Below the pieces are notes generated by a model. The model saw only the letters and a program-made list of their open reading frames with translations, did not search any database and was not told the origin of the DNA. This document shows positions 6,594 to 23,203 of a stretch of 58,961 nucleotides of DNA, one piece after another. The number at the start of each line of letters is the position of its first letter. Position 1 is the first letter of the stretch. A program made the translations under genes and the position numbers. This DNA comes from an uncultured Collinsella sp. (GTDB taxonomy: Bacteria > Actinomycetota > Coriobacteriia > Coriobacteriales > Coriobacteriaceae), in assembly GCA_900544755.1 (NCBI GenBank), contig UQWQ01000001.1, positions 1 to 58,961 of the forward strand. The letters are read 5' to 3'.

Positions 6594-6630
6594 GGCGGGG
6601 AGTGCCGTATCGGCGCTCCCCGCCTTTTTT
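6594..6630 (+). terminator. Intrinsic terminator after bilR
   Basis: GGCGGGGAGTGCCG-TAT-CGGCGCTCCCCGCC followed by T6. Confidence 0.85.
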
Positions 6631-6662
6631 GCCAATGAGGGCGCCCCTGACCAGCGGGTTCA

Positions 6663-6743
6663 GAAAATCCGACTTCTTAGAATATGAAAGTCCGAATTAT
6701 ATGAACAGGAAAATCCGAATCGCAACCACCCGAAAATCCGAAT
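6663..6743 (+). promoter_or_regulatory. Four direct repeats GAAARTCCGA(A/C)T at exact 23-bp period
   Basis: Copies start at 6663, 6686, 6709 and 6732, upstream of the AAA/DUF4143 gene. Confidence 0.75.
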
Positions 6744-6802
6744 TTGCTACAGTGGAATAGAAGAACCAGAAAGCAGGAACTGGAAATCTGCGGGGGTGGC
6801 TC

Positions 6803-8107
6803 ATGGCGGGCGAGAGGCTACATCGGGACGGATACATCCCGCGTATCGTGGATGCGCAAATCGAACGCTACCTTCGCGTCTTTGGCGCGGTCGAGATTGC
6901 GGGCACCAAGTGGTGCGGCAAGACGTGGGCCGCGCTCGAGCACGGGGCGTCCGTCTCGTATGTCGACGAGAATCTCGACCTCGCGCGTGCCGACCCGGCG
7001 ATGATGTTGCTGGGAGACCGTCCGCATATTATCGATGAGTGGCAGCGCGTTCCCCAGATTTGGGACTACGTTAGACACGAGGTCGACCGTGCCCGGGGCA
7101 CGCGCGGCGCCTATATCCTCACGGGTTCCGCCACGCCTGCGTTTGGCTCAAAGGCGGAAGCGCCCGCGCATAGTGGAGCCGGCCGCATCGGCCGCGTCCG
7201 CATGCACCCCATGACGCTTGCCGAGACAGGTGAGTCCAGTGGCAAGGTGAGCCTGGCGGGCTTGTTTGAGCATCGTTTTGAGCCCTGTCGGTGCGATGGC
7301 GATACGCCGGGGCTTGTCGAAGCCGCCTGCCGCGGCGGCTGGCCCGAGGCGATCGATATGGTTTCGGCTGACGCCCAGCTCATCGCCCGCGAATATCTCA
7401 ACACCACATTTTCGAGCAGCTTCCCGGCGGTCGGTCTCGACCCCGATATTGCTCGTCGAGTCTCCGCATCGATCGCGCGCAATCTGGGACAGGCAACCAC
7501 GTATAAAACGATTCTTATGGATATGTTCGGTGCCGAGGAGGAGCCCGCAGCGTTTGCCGATGAGACCAAGGTGCGCAGGTACCTGGATGCCCTCAAAGGC
7601 ATGTTCATTCTCGAGGAGGTTCCCGGTTGGGTTCCCGCCGCGCGCGACAAACGGCGCTTTACCGTCAAGCCCAAGCGCTATCTGGCAGATCCGAGCCTTG
7701 CTTGCGCCTTGCTAGGTATGTCCTTGCAGGCGCTGCTTGCCGACTGGCAGACATTTGGTCTGGTGTTTGAGAATTTGGTCATACGCGACCTTTCGGTCTA
7801 CGCACGTTCGCTCGACCTGCTGGATAGCACGCCCGTGCGCTATTATCGCGACGATTCGGGCCTTGAGTGCGATGCTATCGTGCAGCTAGCCGACGGACGG
7901 TGGGCCGCCTTTGAGATTAGGGTGAGCGAAGATAAGGCGAGCGCCGGCATCGAGAGTCTCAAGCGCGTTCGCAAGAAGGTCTGTGGAAATCCTCGTTCAC
8001 GCACACGCGAACCGGAGTTTATGGCCGTGATTGTGGGGGTGGGTGAGTACGCCCGCGAGGTCGAGGACGGTATCTACGTGATACCCGTGCGCGCGTTGGG
8101 GTGTTAA
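6803..8107 (+). CDS. AAA_14 ATPase with C-terminal DUF4143 (PD-(D/E)xK-like) domain
   Basis: Walker A GTKWCGKT, Walker B IIDEWQ, ILTGS, HSGAGRI, GGWP, KRYLADPSL, FENLV, YYRD..E.D. Confidence 0.9.
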   Translation: MAGERLHRDGYIPRIVDAQIERYLRVFGAVEIAGTKWCGKTWAALEHGASVSYVDENLDLARADPAMMLLGDRPHIIDEWQRVPQIWDYVRHEVDRARGTRGAYILTGSATPAFGSKAEAPAHSGAGRIGRVRMHPMTLAETGESSGKVSLAGLFEHRFEPCRCDGDTPGLVEAACRGGWPEAIDMVSADAQLIAREYLNTTFSSSFPAVGLDPDIARRVSASIARNLGQATTYKTILMDMFGAEEEPAAFADETKVRRYLDALKGMFILEEVPGWVPAARDKRRFTVKPKRYLADPSLACALLGMSLQALLADWQTFGLVFENLVIRDLSVYARSLDLLDSTPVRYYRDDSGLECDAIVQLADGRWAAFEIRVSEDKASAGIESLKRVRKKVCGNPRSRTREPEFMAVIVGVGEYAREVEDGIYVIPVRALGC

Positions 8108-8146
8108 GGGGCAGCACGCCGTGTGTTCTCCGCCCGGCGCTACGGA

Positions 8147-8213
8147 TTGGTGCAAGGGGGTCAGGTTTGTTTGCGCTATGTTGGTGCGAAGTAACCTGAC
8201 CCCTTTGCACCAA
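8147..8213. repeat. REP-like inverted repeat (21-bp arms, GGGGTCAGG type)
   Basis: TTGGTGCAAGGGGGTCAGGTT (8147-8167) and AACCTGACCCCTTTGCACCAA (8193-8213), one mismatch. Confidence 0.8.
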
Positions 8214-8392
8214 GGGTTTGGCTTTTAAGACATCATTAAGGCTTGCGCTGTGGAGCAAACCGCAGGTCAATGCTATTCTTTTACCTTATCGTATGGTGTT
8301 GTATTCTGCCTGAATTCTATGCCTACGAGCAACGGATTGATCGCGACCAAGCGGAAAGGACGGCACGCCCGCTAGCAGGGCAAACGCAAACG

Positions 8393-9448
8393 ATGAGTGG
8401 CATGGACCGACATAGCGAGCTCCAGCAGCACAAGACGGCGGCCGAGTACCGCCAAGCTGCCGACGAGCATGTGCGGACCCTCAAGGATTTCTGGAAGGAT
8501 TTCCTGGTGAGCGGTCTGTTTGTGCTGGCCGCCATCGTTGCCATCTTTGCATGCCTTGCCTGGTTTGCCGCGAACAATCGAGTGAGCGCCACGGGGAGTA
8601 CGATCGGGGCGAAGGGCCCACGGTTTGTGCTCTCGGGAACGCAGGGCGGCACGGCAGGTAAGTACGACGCCCAGGACAACTACGCGTCGGACAGTACAAG
8701 CCTTGCCGTGAACAATCTTTTCAACCTCAATAACATGAGTGCCGATGGCAGTCTTTCTCCGGGGTCGGCTGGTCAGCTCCAGCTCAACGTCAAGCCGCTC
8801 TGCAACGACCTGCACGATATCACGGTGGAGATGACCTGGGAGATTTCCGTCCAGACGAGTGCTGTCGGCATGGGCTCCGCTGCGGATGCATCGAAAAACG
8901 AAGAGATCATCAACTCGCTTAAAGATTTGGTGCGCGGTCATATCCTGGTTTTTCAGGGCAAAGACACCTCTGGCTTTTACTCCAATCCGCTGGTCCCCAC
9001 GACAACCACGGTGACCCAGGACGGAGCCAGCGTTACCGTCATCACGCAGAGCTTTACCATTCCGGCGTCGGACTTTTGCCCTGCGGACTCAAATAGCACG
9101 ACCAAAACCGTACCCAAAACCCTCTACTGGATTTGGCCGGAGCAGTTTAAGAGCTACGTTCGCACGGGCAACGCCGGCTACGGTGGCAACCTTTTTGCGA
9201 GCACGGACCCCGCCGCGGGATACGCAGCCCTCGTCGGCGACATCAACAATAACCACGCGCGCTATTTCCGCGCCGATAGCACGAGCGTGCCAGGTCAGGC
9301 GCCTAGCGCGGTTCCGCCTGTCGGAGCCGGCATGTCCTCTGCGGATGTGGAAACCTGCGCCAGCTACTACAACAACGCCGACGAGATTATCGGCAAGAAC
9401 GTCAAGTACATTCGCGTGCGCTTCACCGCCAAGGAGGCGGATAAATAA
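8393..9448 (+). CDS. Secreted/membrane-anchored protein with SipW-class-like signal (CLA-WF); operon gene 1
   Basis: Single N-terminal hydrophobic helix ending IFACLAWFAANNRVSATG; SPGSAG motif; C-terminal beta-strand YIRVRFTAKE; start 8393 or 8402 (ORF track 8243). Confidence 0.75.
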   Translation: MSGMDRHSELQQHKTAAEYRQAADEHVRTLKDFWKDFLVSGLFVLAAIVAIFACLAWFAANNRVSATGSTIGAKGPRFVLSGTQGGTAGKYDAQDNYASDSTSLAVNNLFNLNNMSADGSLSPGSAGQLQLNVKPLCNDLHDITVEMTWEISVQTSAVGMGSAADASKNEEIINSLKDLVRGHILVFQGKDTSGFYSNPLVPTTTTVTQDGASVTVITQSFTIPASDFCPADSNSTTKTVPKTLYWIWPEQFKSYVRTGNAGYGGNLFASTDPAAGYAALVGDINNNHARYFRADSTSVPGQAPSAVPPVGAGMSSADVETCASYYNNADEIIGKNVKYIRVRFTAKEADK

Positions 9449-10264
9449 ATGGACGAGCAGCTTAATGCCCGCGAGCAGGGCGATATCAAACACAACGAAG
9501 GAGCGGCAAACCCCGGCGGCAACGGGTTCGGCTCGCACGGCGAAGCGCGTCCGGCTGGCCGCATCGAGCGCATCAAGGCTTGGGTGAGCGACCACCGTCG
9601 CGAATCCCTGGCCATCGTGGGTCTGGTGGCCGTGCTTCTCGTGTTGCTGGGATTGACGCTCGGATGGTTCGTCGATGCCAATCGCGGCTCCACCGTCGGC
9701 AAGATCAAGGAGCCGGCAGAGCTCAAGGTGCTGGGTCCCAACGCTACGGCAACAGAGCAGATCGACCTGAGCTACAACCCCGAATACGGCGATACCAAGA
9801 CTGGCAGCACGGTGACGCTCAAGCGCCCGTTTTGCGTGCAGACGGGCGGCGACGGGTTTGAGCTGCAGCTTGCGAATACGACCAACATTACGGGCCTCAC
9901 TATCGAGCTGTATAAAGCTGAGGATACGGGCCTAGGTGATGCTCCCGACGTGAGGGGCACTGCGGGCGGCAAGCCCTATAGCTGGAAAATGTATGAAACG
10001 GATCTGCTGAAGAGCTTCACGCCCATCGAAGACCCGGGTGAGGGCGCAAGCGACCCTACATTCAAGGACTATCAAAACGTCCAGCGCAACGCGCGCCCGC
10101 TCTACCGATACAAGGTGTTCAACAAAGACGAGCTCAATGTCAAGACGCTCGACGGCTCGACTGGCAACGACACGCTTAACTTCATCATCAAGCTTTCGTG
10201 GGACGAGAGCACCAAAGAGACCGACGTGATCTACCTGATCGCGCGCAACACGAGCGGTAAGTAG
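9449..10264 (+). CDS. Secreted/membrane-anchored protein with SipW-class-like signal (TLG-WF); operon gene 2
   Basis: AAGGAGG RBS; abuts gene 1 stop; helix ending GLTLGWFVDAN; C-terminal KETDVIYLIARN. Confidence 0.8.
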   Translation: MDEQLNAREQGDIKHNEGAANPGGNGFGSHGEARPAGRIERIKAWVSDHRRESLAIVGLVAVLLVLLGLTLGWFVDANRGSTVGKIKEPAELKVLGPNATATEQIDLSYNPEYGDTKTGSTVTLKRPFCVQTGGDGFELQLANTTNITGLTIELYKAEDTGLGDAPDVRGTAGGKPYSWKMYETDLLKSFTPIEDPGEGASDPTFKDYQNVQRNARPLYRYKVFNKDELNVKTLDGSTGNDTLNFIIKLSWDESTKETDVIYLIARNTSGK

Positions 10265-10278
10265 GAGAGGGGGCGCAC

Positions 10279-11229
10279 ATGGAGAAGCAAGGGAGGCAGC
10301 AGGATGCCGAGCGCGAGCAGCTGGCAAAAAGCAAAAGCCTAGTCAAGAATAAGCTGGTTGTGGCGGCAATCGCACTTGTTTGCGCCGTGGCGCTCGTGAC
10401 GGGTGGTTACTTTACCTATTCCGCCTACACCGCCAACGGATTTCTAAAGTCCGTCGCCGCAACGGGCACCGCGCAGAGCCTGTTTGCGAGCGATTTGCTC
10501 ACGGGCTATATGAGTGCGCCTAGCAACGATGAACTCGCCCGTGCCCAGCGCTCCGTTACGGTGTATCCCAGCAACGGGCAATGCAGCTTTACCTTTAGCA
10601 TCTACAACTATTTGCTGGGCAACAGCAACTTCTGCAACGACAAAAATGTGACATACACCTTGACGGTCGAGGGGTATGGGCTCGATGGCGCCACGTGGAG
10701 CTATGCGCCCCAGCCCGGTGGCAGCGTCGCGCTTCCGGAGAATCAGCCCACCAAGCACGACTACACCGTGACGTTCCCTGAGGACAAGTTGGGACATGCC
10801 TACTTTGTGATTAGGGCGACGGTGGTTTCGGGCGATAGCCCCGGCACCGAGCTCACCTGTCTGGCGGCGAAAGTCGTGCCGTCAAAGAAGGCCGAGGTCA
10901 AGACCGCCGCGGTTGAGGGTGCGCTGGTTGACGAAACAGATGAAAATACTTTTGCTGATTATGCTGCCTGCAACTACCGCGTAACGGTCACGGGAGCACC
11001 GACAAGCGTCACGCTCAAGTGGGGGGAGCAAGTGGAGATCGACCCGTTCTTCCCGATCAACCATAGTGCGACGGTGGATACCGCAACTCGCACGGCTACG
11101 TTCACCATGGAGCCTGGCTCGATGATCGTCAACTTCTACCGAGTGGACGGCAAAACGCCCGATGACTGGAAAAAGCTGGGTATTAGCGCAACCAAAACCC
11201 CCCAAACGCGCACGACGGAGACTCAATAA
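10279..11229 (+). CDS. Secreted/membrane-anchored protein with SipW-class-like signal (TYSA-YT); operon gene 3
   Basis: AGGAGAGGGGG RBS; KNKLVVAAIALVCAVALVTGGYFTYSAYT; beta-rich mature part. Confidence 0.8.
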   Translation: MEKQGRQQDAEREQLAKSKSLVKNKLVVAAIALVCAVALVTGGYFTYSAYTANGFLKSVAATGTAQSLFASDLLTGYMSAPSNDELARAQRSVTVYPSNGQCSFTFSIYNYLLGNSNFCNDKNVTYTLTVEGYGLDGATWSYAPQPGGSVALPENQPTKHDYTVTFPEDKLGHAYFVIRATVVSGDSPGTELTCLAAKVVPSKKAEVKTAAVEGALVDETDENTFADYAACNYRVTVTGAPTSVTLKWGEQVEIDPFFPINHSATVDTATRTATFTMEPGSMIVNFYRVDGKTPDDWKKLGISATKTPQTRTTETQ

Positions 11230-11269
11230 CTCTGGAAACAGAGTTTTTAGGATAAGAGGTACGGAATCG

Positions 11270-14200
11270 ATGAGAACGGCAAAGCGCATACTCGCAGAGT
11301 TCATGACGGTGATCATGGTGCTCCAGGCATGCTCGCCCACGGTTGCCGCTGTGGCGGCCGGCTGGCAAAACATTTCGAGCGAGATTGCCGCCGCGTCTGC
11401 GGAGGCATCGGATGCAGCCGAGAGCGGCGAGACCAAGAGCGATGTCACGACCGGGTCTGGGTCGAGTGATACCGGCGCCGCGGGTGACGGTGCTGAGGAT
11501 GACGCTGCGAAGGACGACGCTGCAGCGGGCGATACTTCCGATAGTGCCGCGGGTTCCGATTCCGCGGGCGACCAAGCGGAAGGCGACGACTCTGCCGGGG
11601 ATACTGCCGCTGACGATGCCGAGCAAGACGCAGATGATGCAGTTTCGGAGGATGCCGCGGCCCAGGCGAATGCGACGATCAATACTCTGGACGAGCTTGT
11701 CAGGCTGCTCAAGGCTAACGGTGCGGAAAGCATCGTGTGCAAAGACGATAACAGCGGAATCAAAAGCCTCGATGTCAAGTTGTCGGCGGCGTTTACCATC
11801 CTGTCCAACGCCGACGCTTCGCTTTACTACGATGCGCAGATCAAGGTTATCATCACGGGCGATGCGAAGCTCACCGAGTCGGCAAATAACGGCATGTCTT
11901 TCCAGGGCTTTGGCAGCGATGAGCATCCGTTTGAAGGCAAAATCTATAGGTCTCTGAATGGCGTTGATAGCCCTGTTGAGCTTACGACTAACCGGACGGT
12001 TTTTAATAACCTCAAGCTAACTGACCAAAACAATACAGTCAAGATAAAGTGGGTAGGCGCAACTACCTATAGCGCGCCGATGATCGCTTCGAAGGTCAGC
12101 GGTGGGGGCAAGACGCTCAACGCTGTGGTCAACATCGCGAATCCCGTAGGCACCGACGGGACGGATACGACTTCCGCTCTGACGGCGCCCCTTTTGGGTG
12201 AGGCGATGGGTGACCTTACTACAGAGGTCACCTATGGCCCTGCCGGTTCTCTCGAGAAGCTCAACGTAAATGCAGCGGGAAACATCGGGCTTTTAGCGAA
12301 TACAGTCAAGAGCGGAACCTTTACGGTGGGGTCTGTTAAGTTTCCCGATAGCCTTGCCGCGGGCGGTGTCGTCAAGACGAGCTCCGGTAATGCCGGTCTG
12401 CTCGTAGGCACGGTCGAGGATGGCGCGACTCTGAACGTCGGCACCCTTAATGTTCCCGCTGCTACCGTTCAGTCTGCAAGCGGTTCCGCCGGTGGTGTCG
12501 TAGGTCTCGTCGGTTCGAACACAGGCGCCACAGTCAACGTCACGGAGGCTCTCGACCTGCACATGCTCACCGTCAAGGGCACCACCGCCAGCGGCGGCTT
12601 CATCGGTAAGGCGACTAGACTCACGCTTGGCTCGGACAGCGAGAAGTTCACCTGTCCCGCCAACGTCGGCGATGCGAACAGCAAAAGTTCCGGCGGCTTC
12701 ATCGGCGACGTTAGTTTTGCCGGCCCGGTCGAGTTTACCGACAACGACCAAATCGATACGGGCGAGGGCGTGAATCTTGGCCAAAGTGGGGACACGGGCG
12801 CGGGTGGCGTGTTCGGTCTCCTGGACACAACGAACGGCGATGTCGCAATATCAGGTGGCTCGTATACTAGCAAACTGGTGACGGGCTCCAGCTCCATCTA
12901 TGGCGGTCTGGTCGGTAGAATTCAGGATGTGACCAACACAGAGAAGTCGAACAACACCCTTCATATAAAGACGGATGCCGCGGGCAACCGCTGTTCGGTT
13001 GATACTACATGCAGCGTCGCGCCGCGACTGGCAGGAGGCCTGGTCGGCTGGGTGGCAAAGAGCAACAATACTGGAGGCGTTGTAATCGTTGACGGCGCGG
13101 ACGTCACGTGCCATTCTCCAAAAGCCAATGGAAAGAACTGCGGGTTTGGCGGTGTTGTTGGCGCCTTGGATAGCGGCTATAGCGTGGGCGGGCGTTCGCG
13201 TTTTGGAATTCTGGACTGCGGGGACGTTCGCGTTGAAACTGATAAAAACGAATCAATCGCATGTGGTGCCGGAATTGTGGGTTCGGCATGGAACGGCGGC
13301 TTGCGCTTGCGTGGGACTACCGATTTATCCGATTGCAAGCTCGAGGCCAACGGTAATACCAGCCAAATTCTTAGATCCTTGGATGGATGCGCCCCATTGG
13401 TGTTTGCTCTAGGTTCAGGCTCGGATGCTGAGGCAACGAACGATAATTATTGGCTTTACAAACGTCCTGCTGCGGCGAGGATCGATGACCTGACCTATAA
13501 CCAGGTTATCCGCCTGACCGGAGAGGAGGGCAAGCTCAGCAAGGATCTTATTAAACTTGATGAAAGCACCTTTTATCAGCCGTTGTGCAATCTGAGTGGT
13601 GCTCCAGATGCTGGCAGCAGTGCTGGCTACTCTTGGGGTAAACAGCTACGGTCCCAAAATGGTGACGGGAAGTCGGGTACATACCTCATTAATGATGCGG
13701 ATACATTCGCATGCATTGCCATGACGGTCCAAACGAACGGCTACTTTGGCGGTGTATTCGGCATCGGCACGGCTAATATTACGAGCTGGTATGGTAATAG
13801 TGGGAATGCTATCTCAATTACTTCCGACATTGACCTGCGAGGTACAGGCCTTGAAGGTCTTGCATGTGATGGGTCCGGGCAAGTTAATGCCTTCGTAGGG
13901 GCTGTCGAGGGCAACCATCATACCGTTACCTTGGCGATTGGCGAACCTTACGGTACGCGCAACGGCAATGCGCTTGGCGCAAACGATTCGACTGAAGGCA
14001 ACGGCAAGATTTACCGTCACAGCCGTCTGGGCCTCTTTGCCGCTATCGGCGGCTCGACGGCGAATAACCAGATCGCGACGGTGAATAACCTCACCGTCGA
14101 TGGTTCCATTAAGTTTGATAACGGCTTAGGCGTCGACGCTGGCTCGCTTGCGGCAACTATCACTGGCAAGGCAACGCTCAGCGGCGTTACGTGCAAGCCG

Positions 14201-17200
14201 AAAATCACCTGCGATGATACGTTCGGCAACGATGTCAACATTGGCGGCATTGCTGGTAGCGTGAGGGGTGGTGGAACCGTTACTTTCGACAGCAGCAACA
14301 TAAGTGGCAGCACGAAGGCGCAAGCGACCGTCAAAACGGGCGCTACCCTCAACGGCAACACGCGCATTGGCGGCGCTATCGGTTATGTGGCGGACGTTGT
14401 CGCTATCGTCAACGTGACGAGTCTCGAGGTCGGTGACGCGACCGCGAGCGAAAATGCGATTACCGCGGGCGACAGCGCGAGCAATAAGAAATCCCAGATT
14501 GGCGGCCTTATCGGCTGCATCACTCAGGGCACCGCGGCGAATGCGACCAACGTCAACATCACGGGTCTTTCGTTCGACTCGTTCAGCATGACCGTTGGTA
14601 AGAACCGCGACGCGAAGAACGGCGCTGGTGGTCTTTTGGGCTATAGCTGGGGCAATACTGTTGTCACCATCGGGGATAGCAGCAAAAACACCAGCGACAG
14701 TACGTATGCTCTCAAGACGAACAACGCTTCCATAACAGCAAACAGCTCAGGTGAACTCGGCGGGCTCGTATATGCAGCCAGCGGTCACTGGGTTATCAAC
14801 AACTACGCCATCGATCTTTCTGGTGCAACCATCAATGCCGAGAGCGCTACAACGCTTGGTCTGCTCGTTGGCCGCGGCAGTAAGGTGGCTTCTGGAGTAT
14901 ATGGCTCCGAGTCCTATACGGGTTTGTACCTGGAAGATAGGGCTTATTGGGGAACTGCATACAAAGTTTCCGGTATTACGGTCAATGCATCTGAGAAATT
15001 ATCGGAATTCGACGAGTGGGTGGGCAATGGCAAAAAGCCAGGCAGCAAACTCATGGATGGCGAATGGAACACCGTGGTCTCACTGCATACCTATACCGAC
15101 AAGTTGGATATGAGCGGTAACGCGGAGAACGACAACAGTTATAAGAACCGTTCGAACTTTGGCGCAAGTCATAATACAAACGGGAGTATTCGGTATTACT
15201 ACAACCTTGACCGTGCGTATAGCGCCCTCAGCGCCAACGGCAAAGACTATATAGCGCAGAAATCTGTCCAGCTCACTGCTCCGGAAGAGCTTCTTTTGTG
15301 GTCCGCATGCCGTTATGCGCCCGCCGAGGTGCAGAAATACATTGCTCCTGGAATGACTGGAGTTAACGTTGGTCTGAATAGCATTACGGTCTATATCAAC
15401 GGCGGTACAAGTTCAGAACAAAAAACTATCGATTTAAGAGGTTATAGCTACTATCCTGCACAGCCTGGCGGAAACGTATTTGTTCAAGATGTAAATATCA
15501 AATTTTGCCACTCTGATATCAAGTCAGAGTATGCTAACAATAAATCCAACTCGGCCGGCACGCAGCATGAAAACATGCACTGCGGACTTTTGCGTACGAT
15601 TAATGCGAACCTCACGGTAGGCAATGTCACACTGGGCGGCACTATCGGAATTGCGGTTAGCGACGGTGATACAAGTAAGGCAGGGCCTGGCGGCACCGTG
15701 TCAGGTGCTCTGGTGTGCCGCTATATTTACGGGTCTTCGACTTCGGTTAAGCAGGTCTCTATCAATAATCTTACGCTTGATGGTTTGACCGTCGATGGCG
15801 TGACCGATACAACTGGCTATGCTCCTCTGCTTATCAACGAGATGCAGACGTACGTGAATTTGAGCGCAACGAATATCTCAGCCAAGGGGTATGAGGGCGA
15901 CACCAAGGCAGCTACGTCGCTGTTCGGTAGGCTTGGTGTGGGCAGTACGGCCGACCAGGTGACGGCAACATTCAGCGCGATCAGCCTCCCCAGTGCAACT
16001 GATAACGCGATGTTCACCCGCGCAAGCTTGCTTGAGAGCTTTGGCTACGGCGAGGGGAAGACCGGCTCGGCGGTGTATACCTTTATGATGGATGACCAGA
16101 CAAACGATAAGGTCACATTCGGTAGCGAGATCGACTCGAAGGGCGAATACTCCGGTAAGCAGCTCTGGTACTACGACGAGAGCACCTATGGGACCCCCGC
16201 TGGCCTCGTCACCGTTGACAACAAAGAGGCAAATGCGGATACTCCGCAATTCGGTGGTTATCTCCCGTATGTGAAAAAGGGCAATGTCAACGAAAACAAA
16301 GTCCAATACCACGAAATCAAAGTTAACCAGCGTGTGCCCAAGCTTACGACGGGCTGCGGTACCTATGGCGATCCCTATTCCATAACTAAAGCATCAGAGC
16401 TCAACACGGTTGCTGAGTATATCAACACGCAAAATGCAATCGACGGTTGGGAAGTAACGATTGCCGCCAATCAGGAAGAGCTATGTCAGCGTCGTTCGTC
16501 CAGTGAGAATACTGAAAACGAAGTGACGTACATCTACAAACAGGCGAACAAAACATGGGAGAGGAAGACAGGGGAAGGTACCACTGACCCCAATAACGCG
16601 CTTGACGATGCGACGATGCACAGCTATCTCCAAAGCGCCTACTACAGTATCGAGCCGGTTGATAGCGAGGGAAATGGTAGCGATACACTTGTGCTCGATA
16701 CCACCGCTTTCCAGGGTTTGGGCAATCAGAGCAACCCGTTCAGGGGGGTTGTTGTTGGCAATCTGAGAGACGGCGGTTTAGCGACCATCAAGATTAACAA
16801 GCCCGAAGGCGCAAGCGCGCTTTCCGGATTGATCCCGTATAGCTACGGCAGCGTTGTGAGCAACCTGAATATTGAATACTCGGGCATGCCGGTCTCAATT
16901 GCATATAAGAGTAAAGATGCATCTGGTGTGCCGGGCGCGTTCTTTGGCGGCGTGATCGGTTGCATCATGGGCGGTGACAATATCATCGATGGCGTGTCGG
17001 TGAATGCGGATGCTGGCTTTAGCGTTGCTGGGGCGGCAGGCGATAATGGCGGCGGCGCGCACCTTGTGCCCGTTGGCGGCTACGTTGGTGCTGTTGCGGG
17101 TGGCGGCGTCATCTTCCGCAACTCTTCGCGCGGCGACGGTGCCCTTAACCCCTGGCATAGCGCCGGTACTTCTCTCTATGACAACCCGTATGTTGGCCGC

Positions 17201-20200
17201 GTAATCGACGGCTATGCGTTCAGCGAGCTTGCCGATGGTAAGAGTCTCGACAACACTGATCGTAACTACAAGGTGAACAATCTGGATACTTCGAAGACGG
17301 GGTGCATCAAGACGGATGCGACGCAGGGCCGCTATAGGGGAGACGACGCCAATAGCTCTGCGATAACCACAACCGTCAATGACTCGCAGGGACTGCTCGT
17401 ACTCTCGGCCATCATCAGCAGCGGTGCGGCCGGCGGTTCGGCGAATACGAATACCACGAACGATGCGTATGGAACGTATGCGGGCTCGCGTGCCTACATG
17501 GGCGGCAACAACGCAAAGGGAGTGTACCAATTCGGCAACAAGCAATACGGCAAAGTTCGCAACGCGAGCTATACACATGTTGGAAGGCCGGCGAGTGCCG
17601 CTGACGACTTTGCTAATGCGAAAAACGATGACATGAAAAGTCCCGGTATTCAGTTAGAGGGTAACGCGCTCGACTACACAAGCGATGGTTCGGACGTTAA
17701 CTCCCCCTACCTGGTAAAGAAATACGCAACGTGGCAGACGGGTAACATCTGCGCCGCGCAGGTATCGGGAATGGATTTGCAGTTCAAAGCGGGTGAAACC
17801 TATGACATGACTACTTATGGCACGGGTTACACGGGTCTTTCGGGCCGCTACTACTCAAACGCATGCGCATCCGGTAAGGGCGCCGACCGCGATCGCATCG
17901 TGCCGCTTGTTGCGTGCATCAACGGTAACGGTGCAACAATTAAGGTCGGTAGCAAAGAGGCCAGCAAGGTATATGGGGTCACGGAGTACGCCGACGATAA
18001 TTACAAACTCACCGGAGTGGGCGCTCTCTTTGGCACCGTAACGTACACCTCGACCAACGTGAGGGGGAGCATCGGCACTCCGGGAACGGACGGCGCTGCT
18101 GCTGTGGGCAACGGCGGCTATACCGTCCAGAACCTAAAGTTCGATGACTGCAATATTTCTCTTACGTATATCAATGCAGCCGGCGCCCCCAGTGGTGCGG
18201 GCGATGAGCAAGTTGGCGTCGGTCTGCTTGCGGGCACTACGGCGAACGCGAGCTCGCTGGCGGATTACGGCAAATATGCAGGAATTACCATGGATAACTG
18301 CAGGGTGAATGGCCCCAATAACGTTGGCGGATTGCTCGGCGCATCCGGCTATGGTAGCCGCAGGACTGACAAAGATGCAACTTTGCTGGTGAATCGTAAC
18401 GATGAATCACGAGCGACAACGCGCTATTCTCCGGTCAAGCTTTACGATTGCTCTTATAGCAACATGGACATTTCTGGCGTGCAAAACGTCGGTGGCTTCG
18501 TCGGCAAGCTGAACAAAAATTCCGCTGGTGGCGTTTGGACAAAAACGAACATGTCTATTGCCAAGAATTCCACGATTGTGTCAACTGCTTCTAACGCAAG
18601 GACCGGCGGTGTCGTGGGTCTTGCTGGAGGTGGTTTCCTGGTGAACACCGATGATGCTGGAACGCCTTCGCAGGGTGCCGAAAAGGCGGAGATCAGCAAT
18701 GTCACGCTTCAGCCGGCAGCATCGAGCGCGACCGAGGGGACCGGCGGCCTTATCGGAAGGTCCGAAAATGGAATCGTGTCTGTCTACAATCTGTGCATCC
18801 AAGGCGACGTGCAGAGTAAAACGGTATTTGGTGTTAGAGGATCGAATAATCTTAAGTACGTTGCTGGTGCAGTCGGCGAAGCGGCTTCGGGCGGTGCATT
18901 TAAGTTCGATAGCTGTGTAATAAAAGACATCCATCTTGGTGCTCGTGAGTGCTCTGCCGGTTTAATCGGTGATCTGAAAGGTGGGTGTGCCCTCGAGGTC
19001 AAGAATTCAACTATCACTGGACTGGTCGTCGATGGTTCGTATTCTGGTGGTGTTGTTGGCTCGATCGGTAACACGGCGAACTCTGTCACGCTTTTGAATT
19101 CGACCATTGGCGAGAATAACTTTACCGGTAGCAAGAACGCTGCATGGAACTCATCGCTGGGAAGTTGTTCTGGTGGCGTGTCTGGCGATGGCCGTGGCTC
19201 ATTTAGGCTCGTAAACGTGCTCATGGATCGCAATATCTTTGGGGCGCAAACTAGCCAGGGATATTTGTTCGGAAATAGTTCATCCGCTGACCTCGTCAAC
19301 GTTTTTGTCGCAGGAATTGCCATTAGACCAAACAGTGCGAGCGAATCGCTCAAGCTGATGCGCAATTCTTCCGGTGCCGACGACCTTAAAAAGGTGAACA
19401 GAAAGTCATACATCGCATTTGCTGCCTATGAAGACAAGCTTTCCGATGCCAAGGGCGCGACACTGTATGGCAACGATGCTGCGAACGGCAATGTGACGCC
19501 GGCCGTTTCGCCCTACGTCACGACGAGTCCGACGAGCGGCCTTGCTGTGCGCGCTTCCGATGCTGACACGGCCGGCCGTTATCTGTTCGGCGACGGCATG
19601 AACGTTGGCCTTGCCACGGCCATCCAGAATCCGTCGAGCCCCGGCGTTGCCAACCGTTACACCTACACCAACATCGGCGGCATCAATGACGATGGCGCCG
19701 ATCAAAATACGTCGAGCTATAACGCCAAATCCGTGGCAAGCATGTTCAATGCGAATAACGATGCAAGCGACAGCAAGGTTGCAACGGATTTCCCCGTTTT
19801 GGTGATCTCTGGCAACGACAACACGACGGTCAAGAGCTATCTAAACATCGTCACGAACGGCGGCTTCTCCGATGCCTGCAGATTGAATAACGAGAATGGC
19901 ACCAATCCGCACGTGACGGCCAAAGCAGAGGTTTTCCAACTCAAGGACGGTGTGTTCGTTAAAGACGGTGACGCGTCGAACAATCCCACGCTTCGCGTAG
20001 TGAACAATGGCAAGAACAATATGTCGTTTAGCCCAAGCTCCGATTGGGACAACGGCAAAGGTCGCTTTACGCTCCTGACCGTTACCTTTACCGAGGCGGG
20101 TCAGAGCTACAACGTTCAGGTGCCGATCATCGTTAAGCGCAAGCTCGAGATCGATTTCACTGCAACGTATGATTACGGCACTCAATTTAAAGAAAAAGAC

Positions 20201-22117
20201 TACGCTAACCTTGGAAAAGATGCACACGTGCTTACGAGCTTTGGCGAGCCGATGACGGGTCTGCTTACCTGGACATACAATTCTGCCAATGGGAAGGAAG
20301 TCGACTTTGGCTGGGACAGCTATATGGCTGCTGGCGGCTCGATGAAGGGGCTCGGCAAGAGTATCCTCTTCAATGGTGCCGACGGAAGGTTGCCCCAGGG
20401 CACCCAGCTTACGCTCATCGATGCGAACGTTGATGGCAAGGCCGGTGGCAGAGAGTATCACTATACGGTGGGCGAAGGCGGAGCAACGAGCGTTTCCCTG
20501 AGCGGAAACGACGGCTTTAAGGATTCTGCGGGCAATCCATATCAGGAGCGATGGCTGAGCGAGATCTTGGGTGTGTCGGCCACGCAGGATGGCGCCGGCA
20601 CATGGACCGTGTGTGATAACGAGGCAGAGGCGACCGCTAAAGCGAAACTCGATGGCAAGTGGACGCTGTTTAAGGTTGCGGGTGCTGACGTTCCCAGCAA
20701 CAGTCGCTATACGCTAAAGGTACCCAAGGAGAAGGATACCGGCAGAGAGAAGCGTGCATCGGAGAGCGTCTACCTAGTTGTCAACGTGCCCAAGTCGGGC
20801 GACGGCGTGACGCAAGCTAGTATCAACGGTTTTACGGCTTCGTCTATTGACTCGAATTCTTCGGGTGGCCGCATATCTTGGAATCTGCATCATGTTTTAC
20901 GCACCGATGGCAGCGACGATATTCAAAACAGTACGGCATCGACATACAGTATCTTGTCCAATTATGAGCAGAATGTAGTCGACAAAAAAGATGGGGCGTG
21001 CATTCCGGTTTCGAAGTCGGAGGACGGTGCCGCCTACGTTCTTTCTCTCGATGTCATGGATACGGTTACGTTTAGCCCGAGCCAATACTATACAGAGAGC
21101 GACCATCTGTTCTATCAGCTCGATACATCGCTGTGTCGCTATGGCGCCAACAACAACCTAATGGGAGTAAGCAGTTTCCCGAGCGGAACTTCGGCAATTG
21201 CGAAGTTCTATGTTGCCATCGGCAATCAGAACTACAGGTGGAGTGGCAGCGATTGGGAGCCGTATGACGCTTCGACGCCTGCGTTTACACAGATTGTGAC
21301 GGATACGGGTGATGACTCACTGAGGCTCACACTCGACCATGACCTTGCCGGAATCCGCAAGCGTGCAGCGGGCGGATCCTTTACCGTGCGTACGGTAGTG
21401 GAAGAGATTCGCCTTACGCCGGACGGCTGCAACAAGGTTATCTCCCTGTCCAAGCAGTCTGGCGAGGACGCCTGTACCAAGATGTCCTATACCGCCAAGC
21501 TTTCGACGCGTAAGGAAGGCCTTAATACCTCGAGCCTGACGCAGACGAAGCGCGGTAACGTCGGGTACTATCGCATGGACACGGGTGATACGACCATTAC
21601 GCTTTCTGCGCCAGATAAGTCGCAGCTTGGCATTAACGTGGACGACCTGCGTCCGATCGCGAATGGCACGATTGGTCTGGGTGCCACGTATGAACTGGGT
21701 GGACTCAGCAACGCCGCCGAGGCAATTGCGAACGCAGACTCTGTTGTGTACACGCTCTCGCTTCAGCGCCGCGGAACCGACGGCACGTATGAGAGCGTAA
21801 CGGATGATATCTCAAACTACGTAACAGTGACGGAGAGTAAGCTTGCCGCGGTCGCTCCCTCCGGTAGCACGATCACCTTCACTGACTCGAAGGAGAACGG
21901 CAAGTTCAAAACGAAGAACGGTAATACGACGTTTAGCCTGCCCTTTACCGTTAAGGTCAACACGCAGGTTGAACAGCGTGAGCAGTTCTACGCGAACTAT
22001 CGCTTGGTGATGACAGCGAGCCTGGTTAAGGGTGACGTGGCGAGCGCAACGCCTCAATCGCCCGACTATGTGACCTATACGCTCACGAGGGTGAACCTCA
22101 ACGGCATCGACCACTAG
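11270..22117 (+). CDS. Giant (~3615 aa) secreted GLUG-motif / beta-helix-like surface protein; operon gene 4
   Basis: AGAGGT RBS, ATG 11270; signal peptide MRTAKRILAEFMTVIMVLQACSPTVAAVAA; D/A/S-rich linker; many xGGxxG motifs, two FQGxG...PFxG modules, GCGTYGDPYSI; no LPxTG or C-terminal TM helix. Confidence 0.85.
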   Translation: MRTAKRILAEFMTVIMVLQACSPTVAAVAAGWQNISSEIAAASAEASDAAESGETKSDVTTGSGSSDTGAAGDGAEDDAAKDDAAAGDTSDSAAGSDSAGDQAEGDDSAGDTAADDAEQDADDAVSEDAAAQANATINTLDELVRLLKANGAESIVCKDDNSGIKSLDVKLSAAFTILSNADASLYYDAQIKVIITGDAKLTESANNGMSFQGFGSDEHPFEGKIYRSLNGVDSPVELTTNRTVFNNLKLTDQNNTVKIKWVGATTYSAPMIASKVSGGGKTLNAVVNIANPVGTDGTDTTSALTAPLLGEAMGDLTTEVTYGPAGSLEKLNVNAAGNIGLLANTVKSGTFTVGSVKFPDSLAAGGVVKTSSGNAGLLVGTVEDGATLNVGTLNVPAATVQSASGSAGGVVGLVGSNTGATVNVTEALDLHMLTVKGTTASGGFIGKATRLTLGSDSEKFTCPANVGDANSKSSGGFIGDVSFAGPVEFTDNDQIDTGEGVNLGQSGDTGAGGVFGLLDTTNGDVAISGGSYTSKLVTGSSSIYGGLVGRIQDVTNTEKSNNTLHIKTDAAGNRCSVDTTCSVAPRLAGGLVGWVAKSNNTGGVVIVDGADVTCHSPKANGKNCGFGGVVGALDSGYSVGGRSRFGILDCGDVRVETDKNESIACGAGIVGSAWNGGLRLRGTTDLSDCKLEANGNTSQILRSLDGCAPLVFALGSGSDAEATNDNYWLYKRPAAARIDDLTYNQVIRLTGEEGKLSKDLIKLDESTFYQPLCNLSGAPDAGSSAGYSWGKQLRSQNGDGKSGTYLINDADTFACIAMTVQTNGYFGGVFGIGTANITSWYGNSGNAISITSDIDLRGTGLEGLACDGSGQVNAFVGAVEGNHHTVTLAIGEPYGTRNGNALGANDSTEGNGKIYRHSRLGLFAAIGGSTANNQIATVNNLTVDGSIKFDNGLGVDAGSLAATITGKATLSGVTCKPKITCDDTFGNDVNIGGIAGSVRGGGTVTFDSSNISGSTKAQATVKTGATLNGNTRIGGAIGYVADVVAIVNVTSLEVGDATASENAITAGDSASNKKSQIGGLIGCITQGTAANATNVNITGLSFDSFSMTVGKNRDAKNGAGGLLGYSWGNTVVTIGDSSKNTSDSTYALKTNNASITANSSGELGGLVYAASGHWVINNYAIDLSGATINAESATTLGLLVGRGSKVASGVYGSESYTGLYLEDRAYWGTAYKVSGITVNASEKLSEFDEWVGNGKKPGSKLMDGEWNTVVSLHTYTDKLDMSGNAENDNSYKNRSNFGASHNTNGSIRYYYNLDRAYSALSANGKDYIAQKSVQLTAPEELLLWSACRYAPAEVQKYIAPGMTGVNVGLNSITVYINGGTSSEQKTIDLRGYSYYPAQPGGNVFVQDVNIKFCHSDIKSEYANNKSNSAGTQHENMHCGLLRTINANLTVGNVTLGGTIGIAVSDGDTSKAGPGGTVSGALVCRYIYGSSTSVKQVSINNLTLDGLTVDGVTDTTGYAPLLINEMQTYVNLSATNISAKGYEGDTKAATSLFGRLGVGSTADQVTATFSAISLPSATDNAMFTRASLLESFGYGEGKTGSAVYTFMMDDQTNDKVTFGSEIDSKGEYSGKQLWYYDESTYGTPAGLVTVDNKEANADTPQFGGYLPYVKKGNVNENKVQYHEIKVNQRVPKLTTGCGTYGDPYSITKASELNTVAEYINTQNAIDGWEVTIAANQEELCQRRSSSENTENEVTYIYKQANKTWERKTGEGTTDPNNALDDATMHSYLQSAYYSIEPVDSEGNGSDTLVLDTTAFQGLGNQSNPFRGVVVGNLRDGGLATIKINKPEGASALSGLIPYSYGSVVSNLNIEYSGMPVSIAYKSKDASGVPGAFFGGVIGCIMGGDNIIDGVSVNADAGFSVAGAAGDNGGGAHLVPVGGYVGAVAGGGVIFRNSSRGDGALNPWHSAGTSLYDNPYVGRVIDGYAFSELADGKSLDNTDRNYKVNNLDTSKTGCIKTDATQGRYRGDDANSSAITTTVNDSQGLLVLSAIISSGAAGGSANTNTTNDAYGTYAGSRAYMGGNNAKGVYQFGNKQYGKVRNASYTHVGRPASAADDFANAKNDDMKSPGIQLEGNALDYTSDGSDVNSPYLVKKYATWQTGNICAAQVSGMDLQFKAGETYDMTTYGTGYTGLSGRYYSNACASGKGADRDRIVPLVACINGNGATIKVGSKEASKVYGVTEYADDNYKLTGVGALFGTVTYTSTNVRGSIGTPGTDGAAAVGNGGYTVQNLKFDDCNISLTYINAAGAPSGAGDEQVGVGLLAGTTANASSLADYGKYAGITMDNCRVNGPNNVGGLLGASGYGSRRTDKDATLLVNRNDESRATTRYSPVKLYDCSYSNMDISGVQNVGGFVGKLNKNSAGGVWTKTNMSIAKNSTIVSTASNARTGGVVGLAGGGFLVNTDDAGTPSQGAEKAEISNVTLQPAASSATEGTGGLIGRSENGIVSVYNLCIQGDVQSKTVFGVRGSNNLKYVAGAVGEAASGGAFKFDSCVIKDIHLGARECSAGLIGDLKGGCALEVKNSTITGLVVDGSYSGGVVGSIGNTANSVTLLNSTIGENNFTGSKNAAWNSSLGSCSGGVSGDGRGSFRLVNVLMDRNIFGAQTSQGYLFGNSSSADLVNVFVAGIAIRPNSASESLKLMRNSSGADDLKKVNRKSYIAFAAYEDKLSDAKGATLYGNDAANGNVTPAVSPYVTTSPTSGLAVRASDADTAGRYLFGDGMNVGLATAIQNPSSPGVANRYTYTNIGGINDDGADQNTSSYNAKSVASMFNANNDASDSKVATDFPVLVISGNDNTTVKSYLNIVTNGGFSDACRLNNENGTNPHVTAKAEVFQLKDGVFVKDGDASNNPTLRVVNNGKNNMSFSPSSDWDNGKGRFTLLTVTFTEAGQSYNVQVPIIVKRKLEIDFTATYDYGTQFKEKDYANLGKDAHVLTSFGEPMTGLLTWTYNSANGKEVDFGWDSYMAAGGSMKGLGKSILFNGADGRLPQGTQLTLIDANVDGKAGGREYHYTVGEGGATSVSLSGNDGFKDSAGNPYQERWLSEILGVSATQDGAGTWTVCDNEAEATAKAKLDGKWTLFKVAGADVPSNSRYTLKVPKEKDTGREKRASESVYLVVNVPKSGDGVTQASINGFTASSIDSNSSGGRISWNLHHVLRTDGSDDIQNSTASTYSILSNYEQNVVDKKDGACIPVSKSEDGAAYVLSLDVMDTVTFSPSQYYTESDHLFYQLDTSLCRYGANNNLMGVSSFPSGTSAIAKFYVAIGNQNYRWSGSDWEPYDASTPAFTQIVTDTGDDSLRLTLDHDLAGIRKRAAGGSFTVRTVVEEIRLTPDGCNKVISLSKQSGEDACTKMSYTAKLSTRKEGLNTSSLTQTKRGNVGYYRMDTGDTTITLSAPDKSQLGINVDDLRPIANGTIGLGATYELGGLSNAAEAIANADSVVYTLSLQRRGTDGTYESVTDDISNYVTVTESKLAAVAPSGSTITFTDSKENGKFKTKNGNTTFSLPFTVKVNTQVEQREQFYANYRLVMTASLVKGDVASATPQSPDYVTYTLTRVNLNGIDH

Positions 22118-22140
22118 TTCCGAAGCCAACTGGCTTCGCA

Positions 22141-22175
22141 AAGGGGGCGGCAACCACCCGGTTGCCGCCCCTTTT
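22141..22175 (+). terminator. Intrinsic terminator closing the four-gene operon
   Basis: GGGGCGGCAACC-ACCC-GGTTGCCGCCCC followed by TTTT. Confidence 0.85.
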
Positions 22176-22205
22176 CTAGTCTGCGCGATCCCAGTCTTGG
22201 ACTCT

Positions 22206-22412
22206 GCTGAACAGTTAGTTCAGATACGTATAATTCCAGACCGCAGCAGGCGCATTCGGCGCTCGTTTTGGGGAAGAAAGGGGCTCAAAACTAGGGTTCG
22301 GTAGCCATCTGGGCTCGATTTGCGTGCAATGAGTCGCCAAAGAACCCTCTCCGGGGACCATAGCGCAGCTTTATCAGCATAGAAAAATACGTATCTGAAC
22401 TAACTGTCCAGC
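22206..22412. repeat. 207-bp element with 26-bp terminal inverted repeats (MITE-like)
   Basis: GCTGAACAGTTAGTTCAGATACGTAT (22206-22231) versus ATACGTATCTGAACTAACTGTCCAGC (22387-22412), 25/26 complementary. Confidence 0.8.
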
Positions 22413-22807
22413 CGCCGTTGGAGAAAGGTGTTTTAGTTCTCCCGACCCCTCCACCAAGCTTTCCAACTTTCCACTTAACTTAACACCTAAGGTGGAAAGC
22501 TGGGTAGAAAGCTGGAAAGTAAGCGGAAGACTGACATGCTAGCTCAGAGGCTAGAGGGGCTAATAATTATGAAGACCATACCAAGCGAAACAAAAAGATA
22601 CCAATCTGGTTGGTAAAACACGCTCAATGAGCTGCGAGCTAACTAGACGCGTAAATAGAACGTAAAGAAATGTCGCAAATAAATGGCAAATGTCCAGATG
22701 CCGCCGTTGCTATTTTCGATTAACTGCTACGCGGGAACAGCAAAATGCTACTATCTAACATGCACGTAAGAAAGCAGATTAACGGTTAAGGCTAAGAAGT
22801 GGCAGGT

Positions 22808-23203
22808 ATGTCGGAAGCAACTAGGACTCGCACGCATGCGCCTGAGATTAGGCAGCGCGCCGTCGAGATCCTCCAAGAGGGGGTCGGTCATCGCGCCCTT
22901 GCCGCGGAGCTTGGCATTCCCCAGGCCACGGCTCGTCAGTGGGCCCGCGCGTATGCCGTGGGCGGTGCCGACGCCGTTCTCAACGCCGGTTCGCATCATC
23001 ACACCTATTCGTTCGAAGTTAAGCTCGCCGTGGTTAAGGATCGCTTGGAAAACGGCCTGACGGTTCGCGAGGCCATGATCAAGCACAAGATTCCCAGCGG
23101 GTCTTCAGTCAAGGCTTGGTGCCGCCAGTATCGCGAGAGCGGTGAGTCCGCACTGGTTGATAAGCCGCGCGGACGCAAGCCGCGCGTTAAAAAGGTGGAA
23201 TAG
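22808..23203 (+). CDS. Tandem-HTH protein resembling IS3/IS150 OrfA, with no OrfB
   Basis: Two HTH units (TARQWARAYAVGG; YSFEVKLAVV..SVKAWCRQYRESG) and PRGRKP tail; no DDE frame downstream. Confidence 0.75.
   Translation: MSEATRTRTHAPEIRQRAVEILQEGVGHRALAAELGIPQATARQWARAYAVGGADAVLNAGSHHHTYSFEVKLAVVKDRLENGLTVREAMIKHKIPSGSSVKAWCRQYRESGESALVDKPRGRKPRVKKVE

Follow-up and report, generated by a model that had tools for sequence, protein, structure and literature searches.

A four-gene block of Collinsella encoding three candidate subunits and a giant secreted protein: a probable module of a SipW-type, McrBC-linked surface fibre system

In CoCoPALM systems, an McrB GTPase carrying fused transmembrane and coiled-coil helices is accompanied by a coiled-coil McrC and proteins of the signal-peptidase family (Bell et al., eLife 2024, PMC11090510). 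The accessible part of that article describes an FtsB-like transmembrane/coiled-coil part on McrB, a detailed description being deferred by its authors. Its supplementary files, as far as accessible, hold no entry for 'CoCoPALM' or 'Collinsella', and literature searches found no later paper describing such systems. Here, we analyse a block of four genes (genes 1-4) at positions 8393-22175 of a 58,961-nucleotide stretch, referred to below as the window, from an uncultured Collinsella sp. (assembly GCA_900544755.1, contig UQWQ01000001.1). The block is compared with CoCoPALM and with other filament systems, and we propose that it probably encodes part of a surface fibre.

The cleavage site of CalY is placed in the same small-residue/aromatic class as that of TasA, TWA↓AF (the arrow marks the cut here and below). 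In the tips of chaperone-usher pili (FimH/FimG, PapG/PapF), adaptors joined by donor strands carry a distal adhesin; these are Gram-negative systems with a periplasmic chaperone and an outer-membrane usher. According to the accessible text of PMC9674648, mature TasA starts at residue 28, its freed N-terminal strand completes the β-sandwich of the next subunit and the accessory protein TapA has been modelled to donate a strand to TasA. The sipW-bsaA-bsaB-bsaC operon of Clostridium perfringens encodes SipW, TasA-like paralogues and BsaC, a large secreted protein that is not of the TasA kind; donor-strand exchange has been proposed for BsaA and heteropolymers of the paralogues have been suggested, the BsaA subunits are locked by isopeptide bonds and secretion of BsaC needs type IV pilus proteins (accessible part of PMC11580942). 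Filaments outside Bacillus that have been likened to TasA include the archaeal bundling pili and AbpX (PMC9245690; bioRxiv 10.64898/2026.01.04.697558, as far as accessible).

The block is laid out as follows, in window coordinates.

8393-9448, + strand: gene 1, 351 amino acids
9449-10264, + strand: gene 2, 271 amino acids
10279-11229, + strand: gene 3, 316 amino acids
11270-22117, + strand: gene 4, 3,615 amino acids
22140-22175, + strand: intrinsic-terminator-like hairpin that closes the operon (RNA folding and shuffles)

Position 8393 was favoured as the start of gene 1 over an upstream TTG at 8243 because the homologues begin at the same MSGMDRH. The TAA of gene 1 abuts the ATG of gene 2 with no gap; genes 2 and 3 are separated by 14 nucleotides (nt) and genes 3 and 4 by 40 nt, with a purine-rich stretch resembling a ribosome-binding site in both gaps. 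The terminator is a 16 bp G+C-rich hairpin followed by UUUU and, together with a smaller hairpin just upstream, folds with -42.5 kcal/mol (z = -6.9; 0 of 200 shuffled sequences folded as well). It is absent from the list of a consensus terminator scan, probably because A/U pairs lengthen its stem into the T-run. An earlier note on this DNA, written by a model from the letters alone, had described four tightly spaced, co-oriented genes closed by one terminator, and the coordinates, gaps and fold agree with it. Scans of all four proteins against Pfam and NCBIfam returned no family at E <= 1, and BLASTP against the own genome returned no paralogue of any of them.

The machinery of the proposed system was sought in the whole assembly (2.09 Mb, searched as 11,090 open reading frames). 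Three SipW-type peptidases scored above the TIGR02228 cut-off (114.8, 86.5 and 76 bits), with the SM.P serine and TH[RQ] histidine motifs visible in their sequences. All three lie on other contigs, and the sipW gene that the earlier note did not see in the window is thus available elsewhere in the genome. Two contigs, C25 with two of the peptidases and C106, carry a probable CoCoPALM-type cluster.

L007:1697-10752 (contig C25), one strand: CoCoPALM-type cluster, part 1 (TIGR02228, Pfam and PADLOC)
L021:979-5716 (contig C106), strand not assigned: CoCoPALM-type cluster, part 2 (library scans and comparison with genome G125)

On C25, four proteins with an ATYA↓W[FY] junction, a SipW-type peptidase, a 568-residue protein, a 748-residue protein and a second SipW-type peptidase are encoded in this order on one strand. 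The 568-residue protein has hydrophobic and heptad-like N-terminal stretches and an AAA_5-like core; it matches AAA_5 with E 8.4e-4 and 19.8 bits, under the Pfam cut-off of 22, McrB chains in the PDB with E 0.14 and the PADLOC model PDC-M26A with 6.1e-37. The 748-residue protein belongs to DUF2357 (McrC-like; E 1.4e-11). A PilZ protein, a 401-residue protein and two more AWF-junction proteins are encoded on C106, and in genome G125 the genes of C25 and C106 stand together in one cluster. The AWF-junction proteins of the cluster have short signals, with about 24-30 residues ahead of the junction. As judged from these similarities, the machinery most likely comprises two SipW-type peptidases and an McrB-like AAA+ protein anchored in the membrane, paired with the McrC-like DUF2357 protein; the PilZ protein and six further subunit-like proteins would complete it. 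A peptidase of the C25 type was found in 27 of the 150 genomes sampled from the family.

A second SipW locus, in which the peptidase gene adjoins its neighbours, is present on contig C48 (L008:1948-9491). It has the same layout of small subunits plus a giant and encodes a SipW-type peptidase, a 228-residue protein positive for TIGR04088, a 215-residue protein that resembles BsaA weakly (E 4e-4) and a 1,828-residue secreted protein without a family.

The block was linked to the C25/C106 cluster in several ways. The first was homology of gene 1. A gene 1 profile run over the 11,090 open reading frames retrieved gene 1 itself and exactly six other proteins, the AWF proteins encoded on C106 and C25 (E 1.3e-11 to 8.2e-3); the next match was gene 2 at a non-significant E of 0.52. 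Comparison of the gene 1 family with the AWF proteins in hhalign gave a probability of 96.9% (E 1.4e-10) over 54 columns, corresponding to gene 1 residues 28-80. The aligned region comprises the n-region (the part ahead of the hydrophobic helix), the helix, the junction and the first strand; the bodies of the proteins do not align. The shared module is delimited as follows.

8489-8617, + strand: helix, junction and first-strand module of gene 1, residues 33-75 (profile and hhalign matches, allele identity)

A junction model of 36 positions, built from 16 machinery proteins only, was also prepared; it finds the TIGR04088 protein of C48 (E 5.9e-5), which ties the AWF junction class to SipW-cognate signals.

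The second link was gene order. In G269, a genome of another family in the same order, the four genes stand inside the peptidase cluster, and one strand reads a C106-like gene, an AWF protein, genes 1-4, A, B, C, D, SipW, McrB-like, McrC-like and SipW. Gene 4 of G269 has 3,689 residues.

The third was co-occurrence in the sample of 150 genomes of the family, in which a genome was counted as a carrier when gene 2 was present. Gene 2 was found in 30 of the 150, all of one genus. A C25-type SipW (at least 110 bits) was present in 26 of the 30 carriers and in one of the 120 others, G109, the contig of which ends 374 nt before the right flank, so that its carrier status is uncertain. A SipW-type gene of any kind scored over the cut-off in 27 of the 30 carriers and in 16 of the 120 non-carriers. 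These counts overstate independence because the genomes are kin.

The block itself is conserved as a unit, as the earlier note had supposed. The four genes are collinear in 78 of the best 80 public loci (titled Collinsella, Coriobacteriaceae or uncultured bacterium, and mostly metagenome-assembled genomes), the other two being cut by contig ends, and in nine of ten fetched loci, the tenth being cut. In two other genera genes 1-3 are collinear in all four loci, with gene 4 next in three and a contig end in the fourth. A search for related loci with a 16-row alignment returned only close Collinsella among its best 80 and no distant synteny.

Since the genome encodes SipW-type peptidases, the N-terminal module of gene 1 is homologous to that of the cluster subunits and the block is embedded in the cluster in G269, the block is most likely a detached module of the CoCoPALM type. 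An association of the block with the SipW/McrBC system appears highly probable. The fuller statement, that it is the structural module of a SipW-type, McrBC-linked (CoCoPALM-type) surface fibre system with its machinery on other contigs, is moderately favoured. The earlier note had proposed a pilus-like assembly that it did not recognize as described in Coriobacteriia. The CoCoPALM class is so far uncharacterized; as a free-standing system the proposal did not stand, the G269 locus and the homology of gene 1 placing the block with a cluster of a type that already has a name.

Each of the three small proteins contains a single hydrophobic segment (gene 1, residues 33-62; gene 2, 49-78; gene 3, 19-49) ending in a small-residue/aromatic junction: CLA↓WF in gene 1 (A56/W57), TLG↓WF in gene 2 (G72/W73) and TYS↓AY in gene 3 (S48/A49). 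The strings quoted for this feature by the earlier note were found letter for letter. Gene 1 has a conserved cytoplasmic N-region, a transmembrane helix, CLA↓WF, a conserved extension and a β-sandwich body with helices, in this order. Its family comprises 869 homologues in 90% clusters and 299 representatives of 50% clusters (E <= 1e-3). In an alignment of 111 diverse members, which share 21-91% identity with gene 1, the helix ends in h-h-[small]-[IL]-A-W-F-x-x-N-N-x-V, with W57 invariant and A56, F58 and N61 at least 90% conserved. In gene 2, W73, F74, S81, T82, V83, K85 and P89 are invariant among 20 sequences, and a conserved STVGK strand follows the junction. In gene 3, T46, A49, L56, K57, V59, Q66 and L68-D72 are invariant among 21 sequences, the run L56-Y77 is also conserved and the conserved extension spans residues 49-77. 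To judge by these alignments, the junctions of genes 1-3 are conserved beyond chance expectation.

The AlphaFold2 (AF2) model of gene 1 is a β-sandwich with helices (predicted local distance difference test, pLDDT, 87; predicted template-modelling score 0.76) in which residues 16-60 are drawn as one continuous helix and the last strand covers residues 337-348 of 351. Gene 3 was modelled as two tandem Ig-like sandwiches with pLDDT 70.7 overall and 62-92 per ten-residue block over residues 70-310. These models bear out the β-rich bodies read from the sequence by the earlier note for genes 1 and 3, and its C-terminal strand for gene 1. In the monomer models the conserved stretches after the junctions (gene 1, 62-73; gene 3, 49-68) are disordered, with pLDDT below 50.

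Structure searches with gene 1 gave nothing at E <= 1e-3 in Foldseek and a best Z of 6.1 in VIA-align (wide), where only tied sandwich folds were returned. Among these was the TasA fibre (8aur_A; Z 5.6, root-mean-square deviation 4.3, 138 residues aligned), tied with many other sandwich folds. The best Z for gene 3 was 7.7, again for generic β-sandwich matches only. Since these matches are tied and unspecific, genes 1 and 3 are not assigned to a fold family, and for the same reason genes 1-3 are not filed under the TasA family. A PDB sequence search with the gene 1 profile gave nothing relevant. The nearest named Atlas cluster of gene 1 has PF12389 in 53% of its members (score 0.87), which serves as a lead only.

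For complex prediction, the chains of the predicted mature forms were used: gene 1 residues 57-351, gene 2 residues 73-271 (the scored partner) and gene 3 residues 49-316. Gene 2 scored 0.78, 0.70 and 0.72 in the three runs (median 0.72), compared with 0.00 for the best of three controls; the runs shared at least 39% of their contacts and the partner pLDDT was at least 57. Of the calibration cases, 116 of 157 solved complexes and two of 215 mismatched pairs came up to the mark, counts that hold only roughly here because own alignments and three chains were used. The confident interface joins gene 2 residues 76-89 (expected error 1.1-1.6 Å) to gene 1 residues 78-131 and 330-347, including the last β-strand of gene 1. 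The gene 2 strand starts three residues past the proposed cut and includes the invariant S81, T82, V83, K85 and P89; on gene 1 the interface includes the invariant D330 and G334 and adjoins the invariant P123 and the near-invariant G124 and G127. No confident contact was reported for gene 3, which speaks neither for nor against one, since residues not named here count as uncertain. As far as model confidence goes, the geometry is that of donor-strand complementation. Strand complementation, as put forward in the earlier note, is accordingly predicted for one pair, gene 2 on gene 1, and we favour this docking slightly.

SipW-type processing of gene 1 is likely, and for genes 2 and 3 such processing is about as probable as not.

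A number of results weigh against this assignment. The assignment itself is built from sequences and models. None of genes 1-3 was matched at E <= 1 by the TIGR04088, TasA, camelysin or BsaA models, nor by Pfam PF12389 (Peptidase_M73, TasA/camelysin), and here the signal class named in the earlier note was not recovered; the TIGR04088 cut-off is 19 bits, and the same library detects the C48 protein of this genome at 21.2 bits. In the junction model gene 1 ranks 11th (E 3.2) and genes 2 and 3 lie outside the top 22. The hhalign comparison of genes 2 and 3 with the cluster gave only 47% and 15%, though with the junctions in register. The n-regions ahead of the helices are long (about 18-48 residues), and residues 1-60 of gene 1, n-region and helix together, are 100% identical between allele groups, which would be unusual for a disposable signal peptide. 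Fold searches with genes 1 and 3 yielded the generic sandwiches given above. The complex job was unlike its calibration in its alignments and number of chains, and its scores express model confidence, not binding. Co-occurrence among kin is not independent evidence. Three of the 30 carriers (G064, G078 and G094, all 99% complete assemblies) have no SipW-type peptidase over the cut-off; the block of G064 is intact, as is that of G095 with only the other SipW type, and the intact G064 block weakens a strict dependence on SipW.

Part of this evidence suits a different reading, which we consider the main rival and nonetheless unlikely: genes 1-3 would remain uncleaved as single-pass, type II-like anchors and would form a cell-bound holder or receptor of the giant, the junction being an interfacial motif. 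The long, conserved n-regions, the identity of the gene 1 N-terminus between alleles, the lack of a TIGR04088 match, the intact G064 block and the continuous helix drawn by AF2 over the gene 1 junction all agree with such a holder. It accounts less well for the small residue at -1 and the W/F at +1/+2 that are nearly invariant over the 111 homologues, and for the homology of the gene 1 module to proteins with short signals (about 24-30 residues) encoded beside SipW genes. The predicted contact of gene 2 with gene 1 uses the stretch right after the junction and speaks against an uncleaved helix because this stretch, if uncut, would be pinned at the membrane.

The four carriers without a C25-type peptidase, the presence of block and cluster on different contigs in this genome and the restriction of the family-sample carriers to one genus fit an autonomous operon for a large adhesin with three accessory proteins, in which the co-occurrence would reflect shared ancestry of a Collinsella sublineage. 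We regard this as improbable. The block stands inside the cluster in G269, and the N-terminal module of gene 1 is homologous to the cluster subunits. In the non-carrier G021 the site is empty and no SipW scores over the cut-off, yet the G021 flanks are about as similar to this genome (89-96% in DNA) as the flanks of carriers are.

In two of the four carriers without a C25-type peptidase a block gene is split (gene 1 in G078, gene 4 in G094), compared with none of the nine complete loci of C25-SipW carriers, a comparison that rests on small numbers (four and nine loci). In G094 gene 4 is broken into open reading frames of 1,966 and 1,636 residues (L112:3264-13941); the split gene 1 of G078 is at L016:2821-4025. 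If they are decay, these splits would be a further link between the block and the machinery; they could also be assembly errors.

Gene 4 begins with an ordinary signal peptide, which in divergent alleles ends ...VFA↓QE, followed by an acidic low-complexity stretch and zones rich in Gly, Asn and Thr. The signal-like segment at the N-terminus is its sole hydrophobic segment and the C-terminus ends YVTYTLTRVNLNGIDH. LPxTG occurs nowhere in the protein and there is no C-terminal hydrophobic tail, so that the features of a sortase anchor are lacking; sortase genes are present elsewhere in this genome. The Pfam scan of gene 4 gave no SLH domain and no other family at E <= 1, and a PDB sequence search gave no match. 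Gene 4 is thus unanchored by these routes, as the earlier note had it. The GLUG label of the earlier note fared less well: the best match of gene 4 pieces to Pfam PF07581 (Glug) was E 1.2 with 10.1 bits, below the gathering cut-off of 20.5. Seventeen clustered GG[LIVF][LIVA]G motifs are present, and a language-model search gave Glug in 22 of the 30 nearest named Atlas clusters (score 0.94, 158-163 shared features), which is a lead; the GLUG assignment of gene 4 is weak. A polymorphic toxin was considered and rejected: the most variable parts of gene 4 are not limited to the C-terminal tip, and no small gene lies between gene 4 and the terminator.

The block occupies one and the same site in every Collinsella carrier fetched, with neighbouring proteins 95-99.7% identical. 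In the non-carrier G021 about 200 nt separate the gene at window positions 4531-6567 from downstream sequence that matches the window from 22554 onward, and since the site is empty between these flanks the island was placed at about 6570-22553.

6570-22553, no strand assigned: present/absent island made up of the DUF4143/AAA_14 ATPase gene and the four-gene block (compared with the empty site in G021)
6803-8107, no strand assigned: DUF4143/AAA_14 ATPase gene (PADLOC PDC-S01, 8.5e-53)
8615-22451, no strand assigned: hypervariable mosaic segment among carriers (locus alignments)

The flanks of carriers are 92-95% identical in DNA and 97-99% in protein. On the left, about 95% DNA identity extends to nt ~8615, at codon ~74 in gene 1; on the right, 91-94% resumes from ~22451. 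The first 60 residues of gene 1, identical between the allele groups, are followed by sequence at 17-50% identity. Two allele groups were distinguished, which share 40-49% protein identity in genes 1-3 and 45-46% in gene 4. Gene 4 is a mosaic: in one relative the final ~700 residues are 100% identical and other blocks 27-36%, and another is 30-37% identical at ~500-900 and mostly 76-100% elsewhere, with one dip to 42-60%. Over 78 loci with gene 1 at 91-99.7% identity, residues 201-1200 of gene 4 span 36-96%. This pattern fits a recombination-driven diversification of an exposed surface protein.

Such strong mosaic variation would also be expected under phage pressure. Together with the PADLOC matches on the AAA+ protein (PDC-M26A) and on the ATPase of the island (PDC-S01), it agrees with a non-adhesive role in which the McrBC-like cluster and the giant serve phage defence, a decoy or another envelope function and the small proteins are export or assembly factors. 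The two PADLOC models are candidate-defence models without tested function, library scans found no DNA-binding or nuclease domain in the cluster or block proteins, and along with two signal peptidases the cluster holds a PilZ protein and numerous exported β-sandwich proteins. We give this explanation very little weight, less even than that given to the autonomous operon.

Several further elements were seen in and around the island. Between the DUF4143 ATPase gene and gene 1 there is a very long, near-perfect hairpin at 8147-8213; the region 8135-8235 folds with -56.6 kcal/mol (z = -7.5), Rfam gives only chance matches resembling microRNA precursors, and the hairpin may be a terminator of the upstream gene or a small repeat element. 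A scan of 8108-8392 for sigma-70-type promoters found none. Rfam returned no family at gathering score in the whole window, and in the leader of the block hairpin-type chance matches only and no riboswitch. Just past the terminator, about 270 nt (22181-22450) have inverted-repeat ends (~22207-22233 and ~22385-22409); the relative L015 has 29 nt in their place, and the stretch looks like a small insertion of the kind of a miniature inverted-repeat transposable element. At 22799-23203 a 134-residue helix-turn-helix (HTH) protein resembling an IS3-type orfA (HTH_28, HTH_Tnp_1) is encoded without the transposase orfB. Eight of ten relatives' loci have it at this position with 90-96% identity, the other two loci ending earlier, and it resembles a domesticated regulator more than a mobile element. 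An ATPase-like gene, judged by N-terminal sequence only, follows the block in G176. A gene upstream of the block, at window 2640-3995, encodes Schlafen AlbA_2, HATPase_c_4 and HTH domains in one protein, and a related HATPase_c_4/HTH gene heads contig C106, adjoining the fibre cluster.

Returning to the block as a structural module of a CoCoPALM-type fibre, the following course may be proposed. Genes 1-3 would be exported with the N-terminal helix as a signal-anchor, as their topology features suggest, and a SipW-type peptidase would cut at A56/W57, G72/W73 and S48/A49. The freed N-terminal extension would then act as a donor strand, with gene 2 residues 76-89 predicted to complete the gene 1 sandwich by its C-terminal strand. 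From its homology to the machinery-cluster subunits, the gene 1 extension may couple the module to a fibre of these subunits. Gene 4 would leave via Sec and be held by the module as a distal, strain-variable, adhesin-like cargo. At the DNA level, the module occupies one chromosomal site, where it is exchanged or shuffled by recombination between a point shortly past the gene 1 junction and one ~330 nt past the gene 4 stop. The putative tethering of gene 4 by genes 1-3 is possible, and we would place it below an even chance.

A bolder version can be put forward only tentatively. The block would be a tip cassette, open to exchange, of a Gram-positive surface appendage of a third kind, distinct from sortase and type IV pili. 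Its subunits, kept in the membrane through the N-terminal helix and bearing a conserved handle on the cytoplasmic side, would be engaged by a McrBC-derived, membrane-tethered GTPase, cut by SipW-type peptidases and joined through donor strands into a heteropolymer. This heteropolymer would show the 3.6-kaa adhesin (kaa, thousand amino acids), reshuffled by recombination at a fixed locus in gut Collinsella strains to alter binding or to evade phage and immunoglobulin A. Taken as a whole, this version is rather doubtful.

Collinsella is a common human gut genus, and among the titles listed by literature searches none deals with such surface structures in Collinsella. A single paragraph in the accessible part of PMC11090510 names the McrBC-linked SipW class, which is otherwise unstudied. 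On the reading favoured here, the locus would add a CoCoPALM-type system outside Bacillota, three subunit proteins without a family that include a concrete and testable strand-docking pair, and evidence that the genes of a structural module need not lie with those of its machinery. It is also a clear example of a giant, mosaic surface protein that varies from strain to strain and is encoded at a fixed site, the type of feature that shapes colonization, susceptibility to phages and recognition by antibodies. Since several carriers are cultured isolates, the predictions are open to bench experiments.

In comparison with the described systems, the archaeal bundling pili and AbpX are set apart by description only: the accessible parts of their reports mention no McrBC motor and no link to a giant cargo. 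The chaperone-usher pili work in a manner like that proposed here, and chains with pilin domains occur among the weak, tied fold matches for genes 1 and 3, but these scores are too low to be specific and homology is lacking. The Bsa operon shares the layout of several small subunits plus a large secreted protein tied to SipW; it differs in that genes 1-3 have no match to the BsaA model, which the C48 protein does match weakly. The tapA-sipW-tasA system of Bacillus subtilis also has a dedicated SipW-type peptidase and a small-residue/aromatic junction, and the donation of a strand by TapA to TasA resembles the model of gene 2 on gene 1. In contrast to that system, genes 1-3 lack a TasA/Peptidase_M73 sequence match and the TasA fold is one of many tied matches, the n-regions are long, the peptidase genes are not adjacent, the candidate substrates number nine, and a motor of McrBC-like type, a PilZ protein and a cargo of 3.6 kaa come in addition. 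From CoCoPALM the locus differs in that the block is hypervariable and on a contig separate from the machinery, and the accessible text of PMC11090510 is silent on subunit families, a giant cargo and detached modules. The likeness to CoCoPALM lies in the machinery: the McrB-like AAA+ protein of this genome adjoins the McrC-like DUF2357 protein, two signal peptidases flank the pair, and the cluster has the same order in G125 and in G269, where the four-gene block lies inside it.

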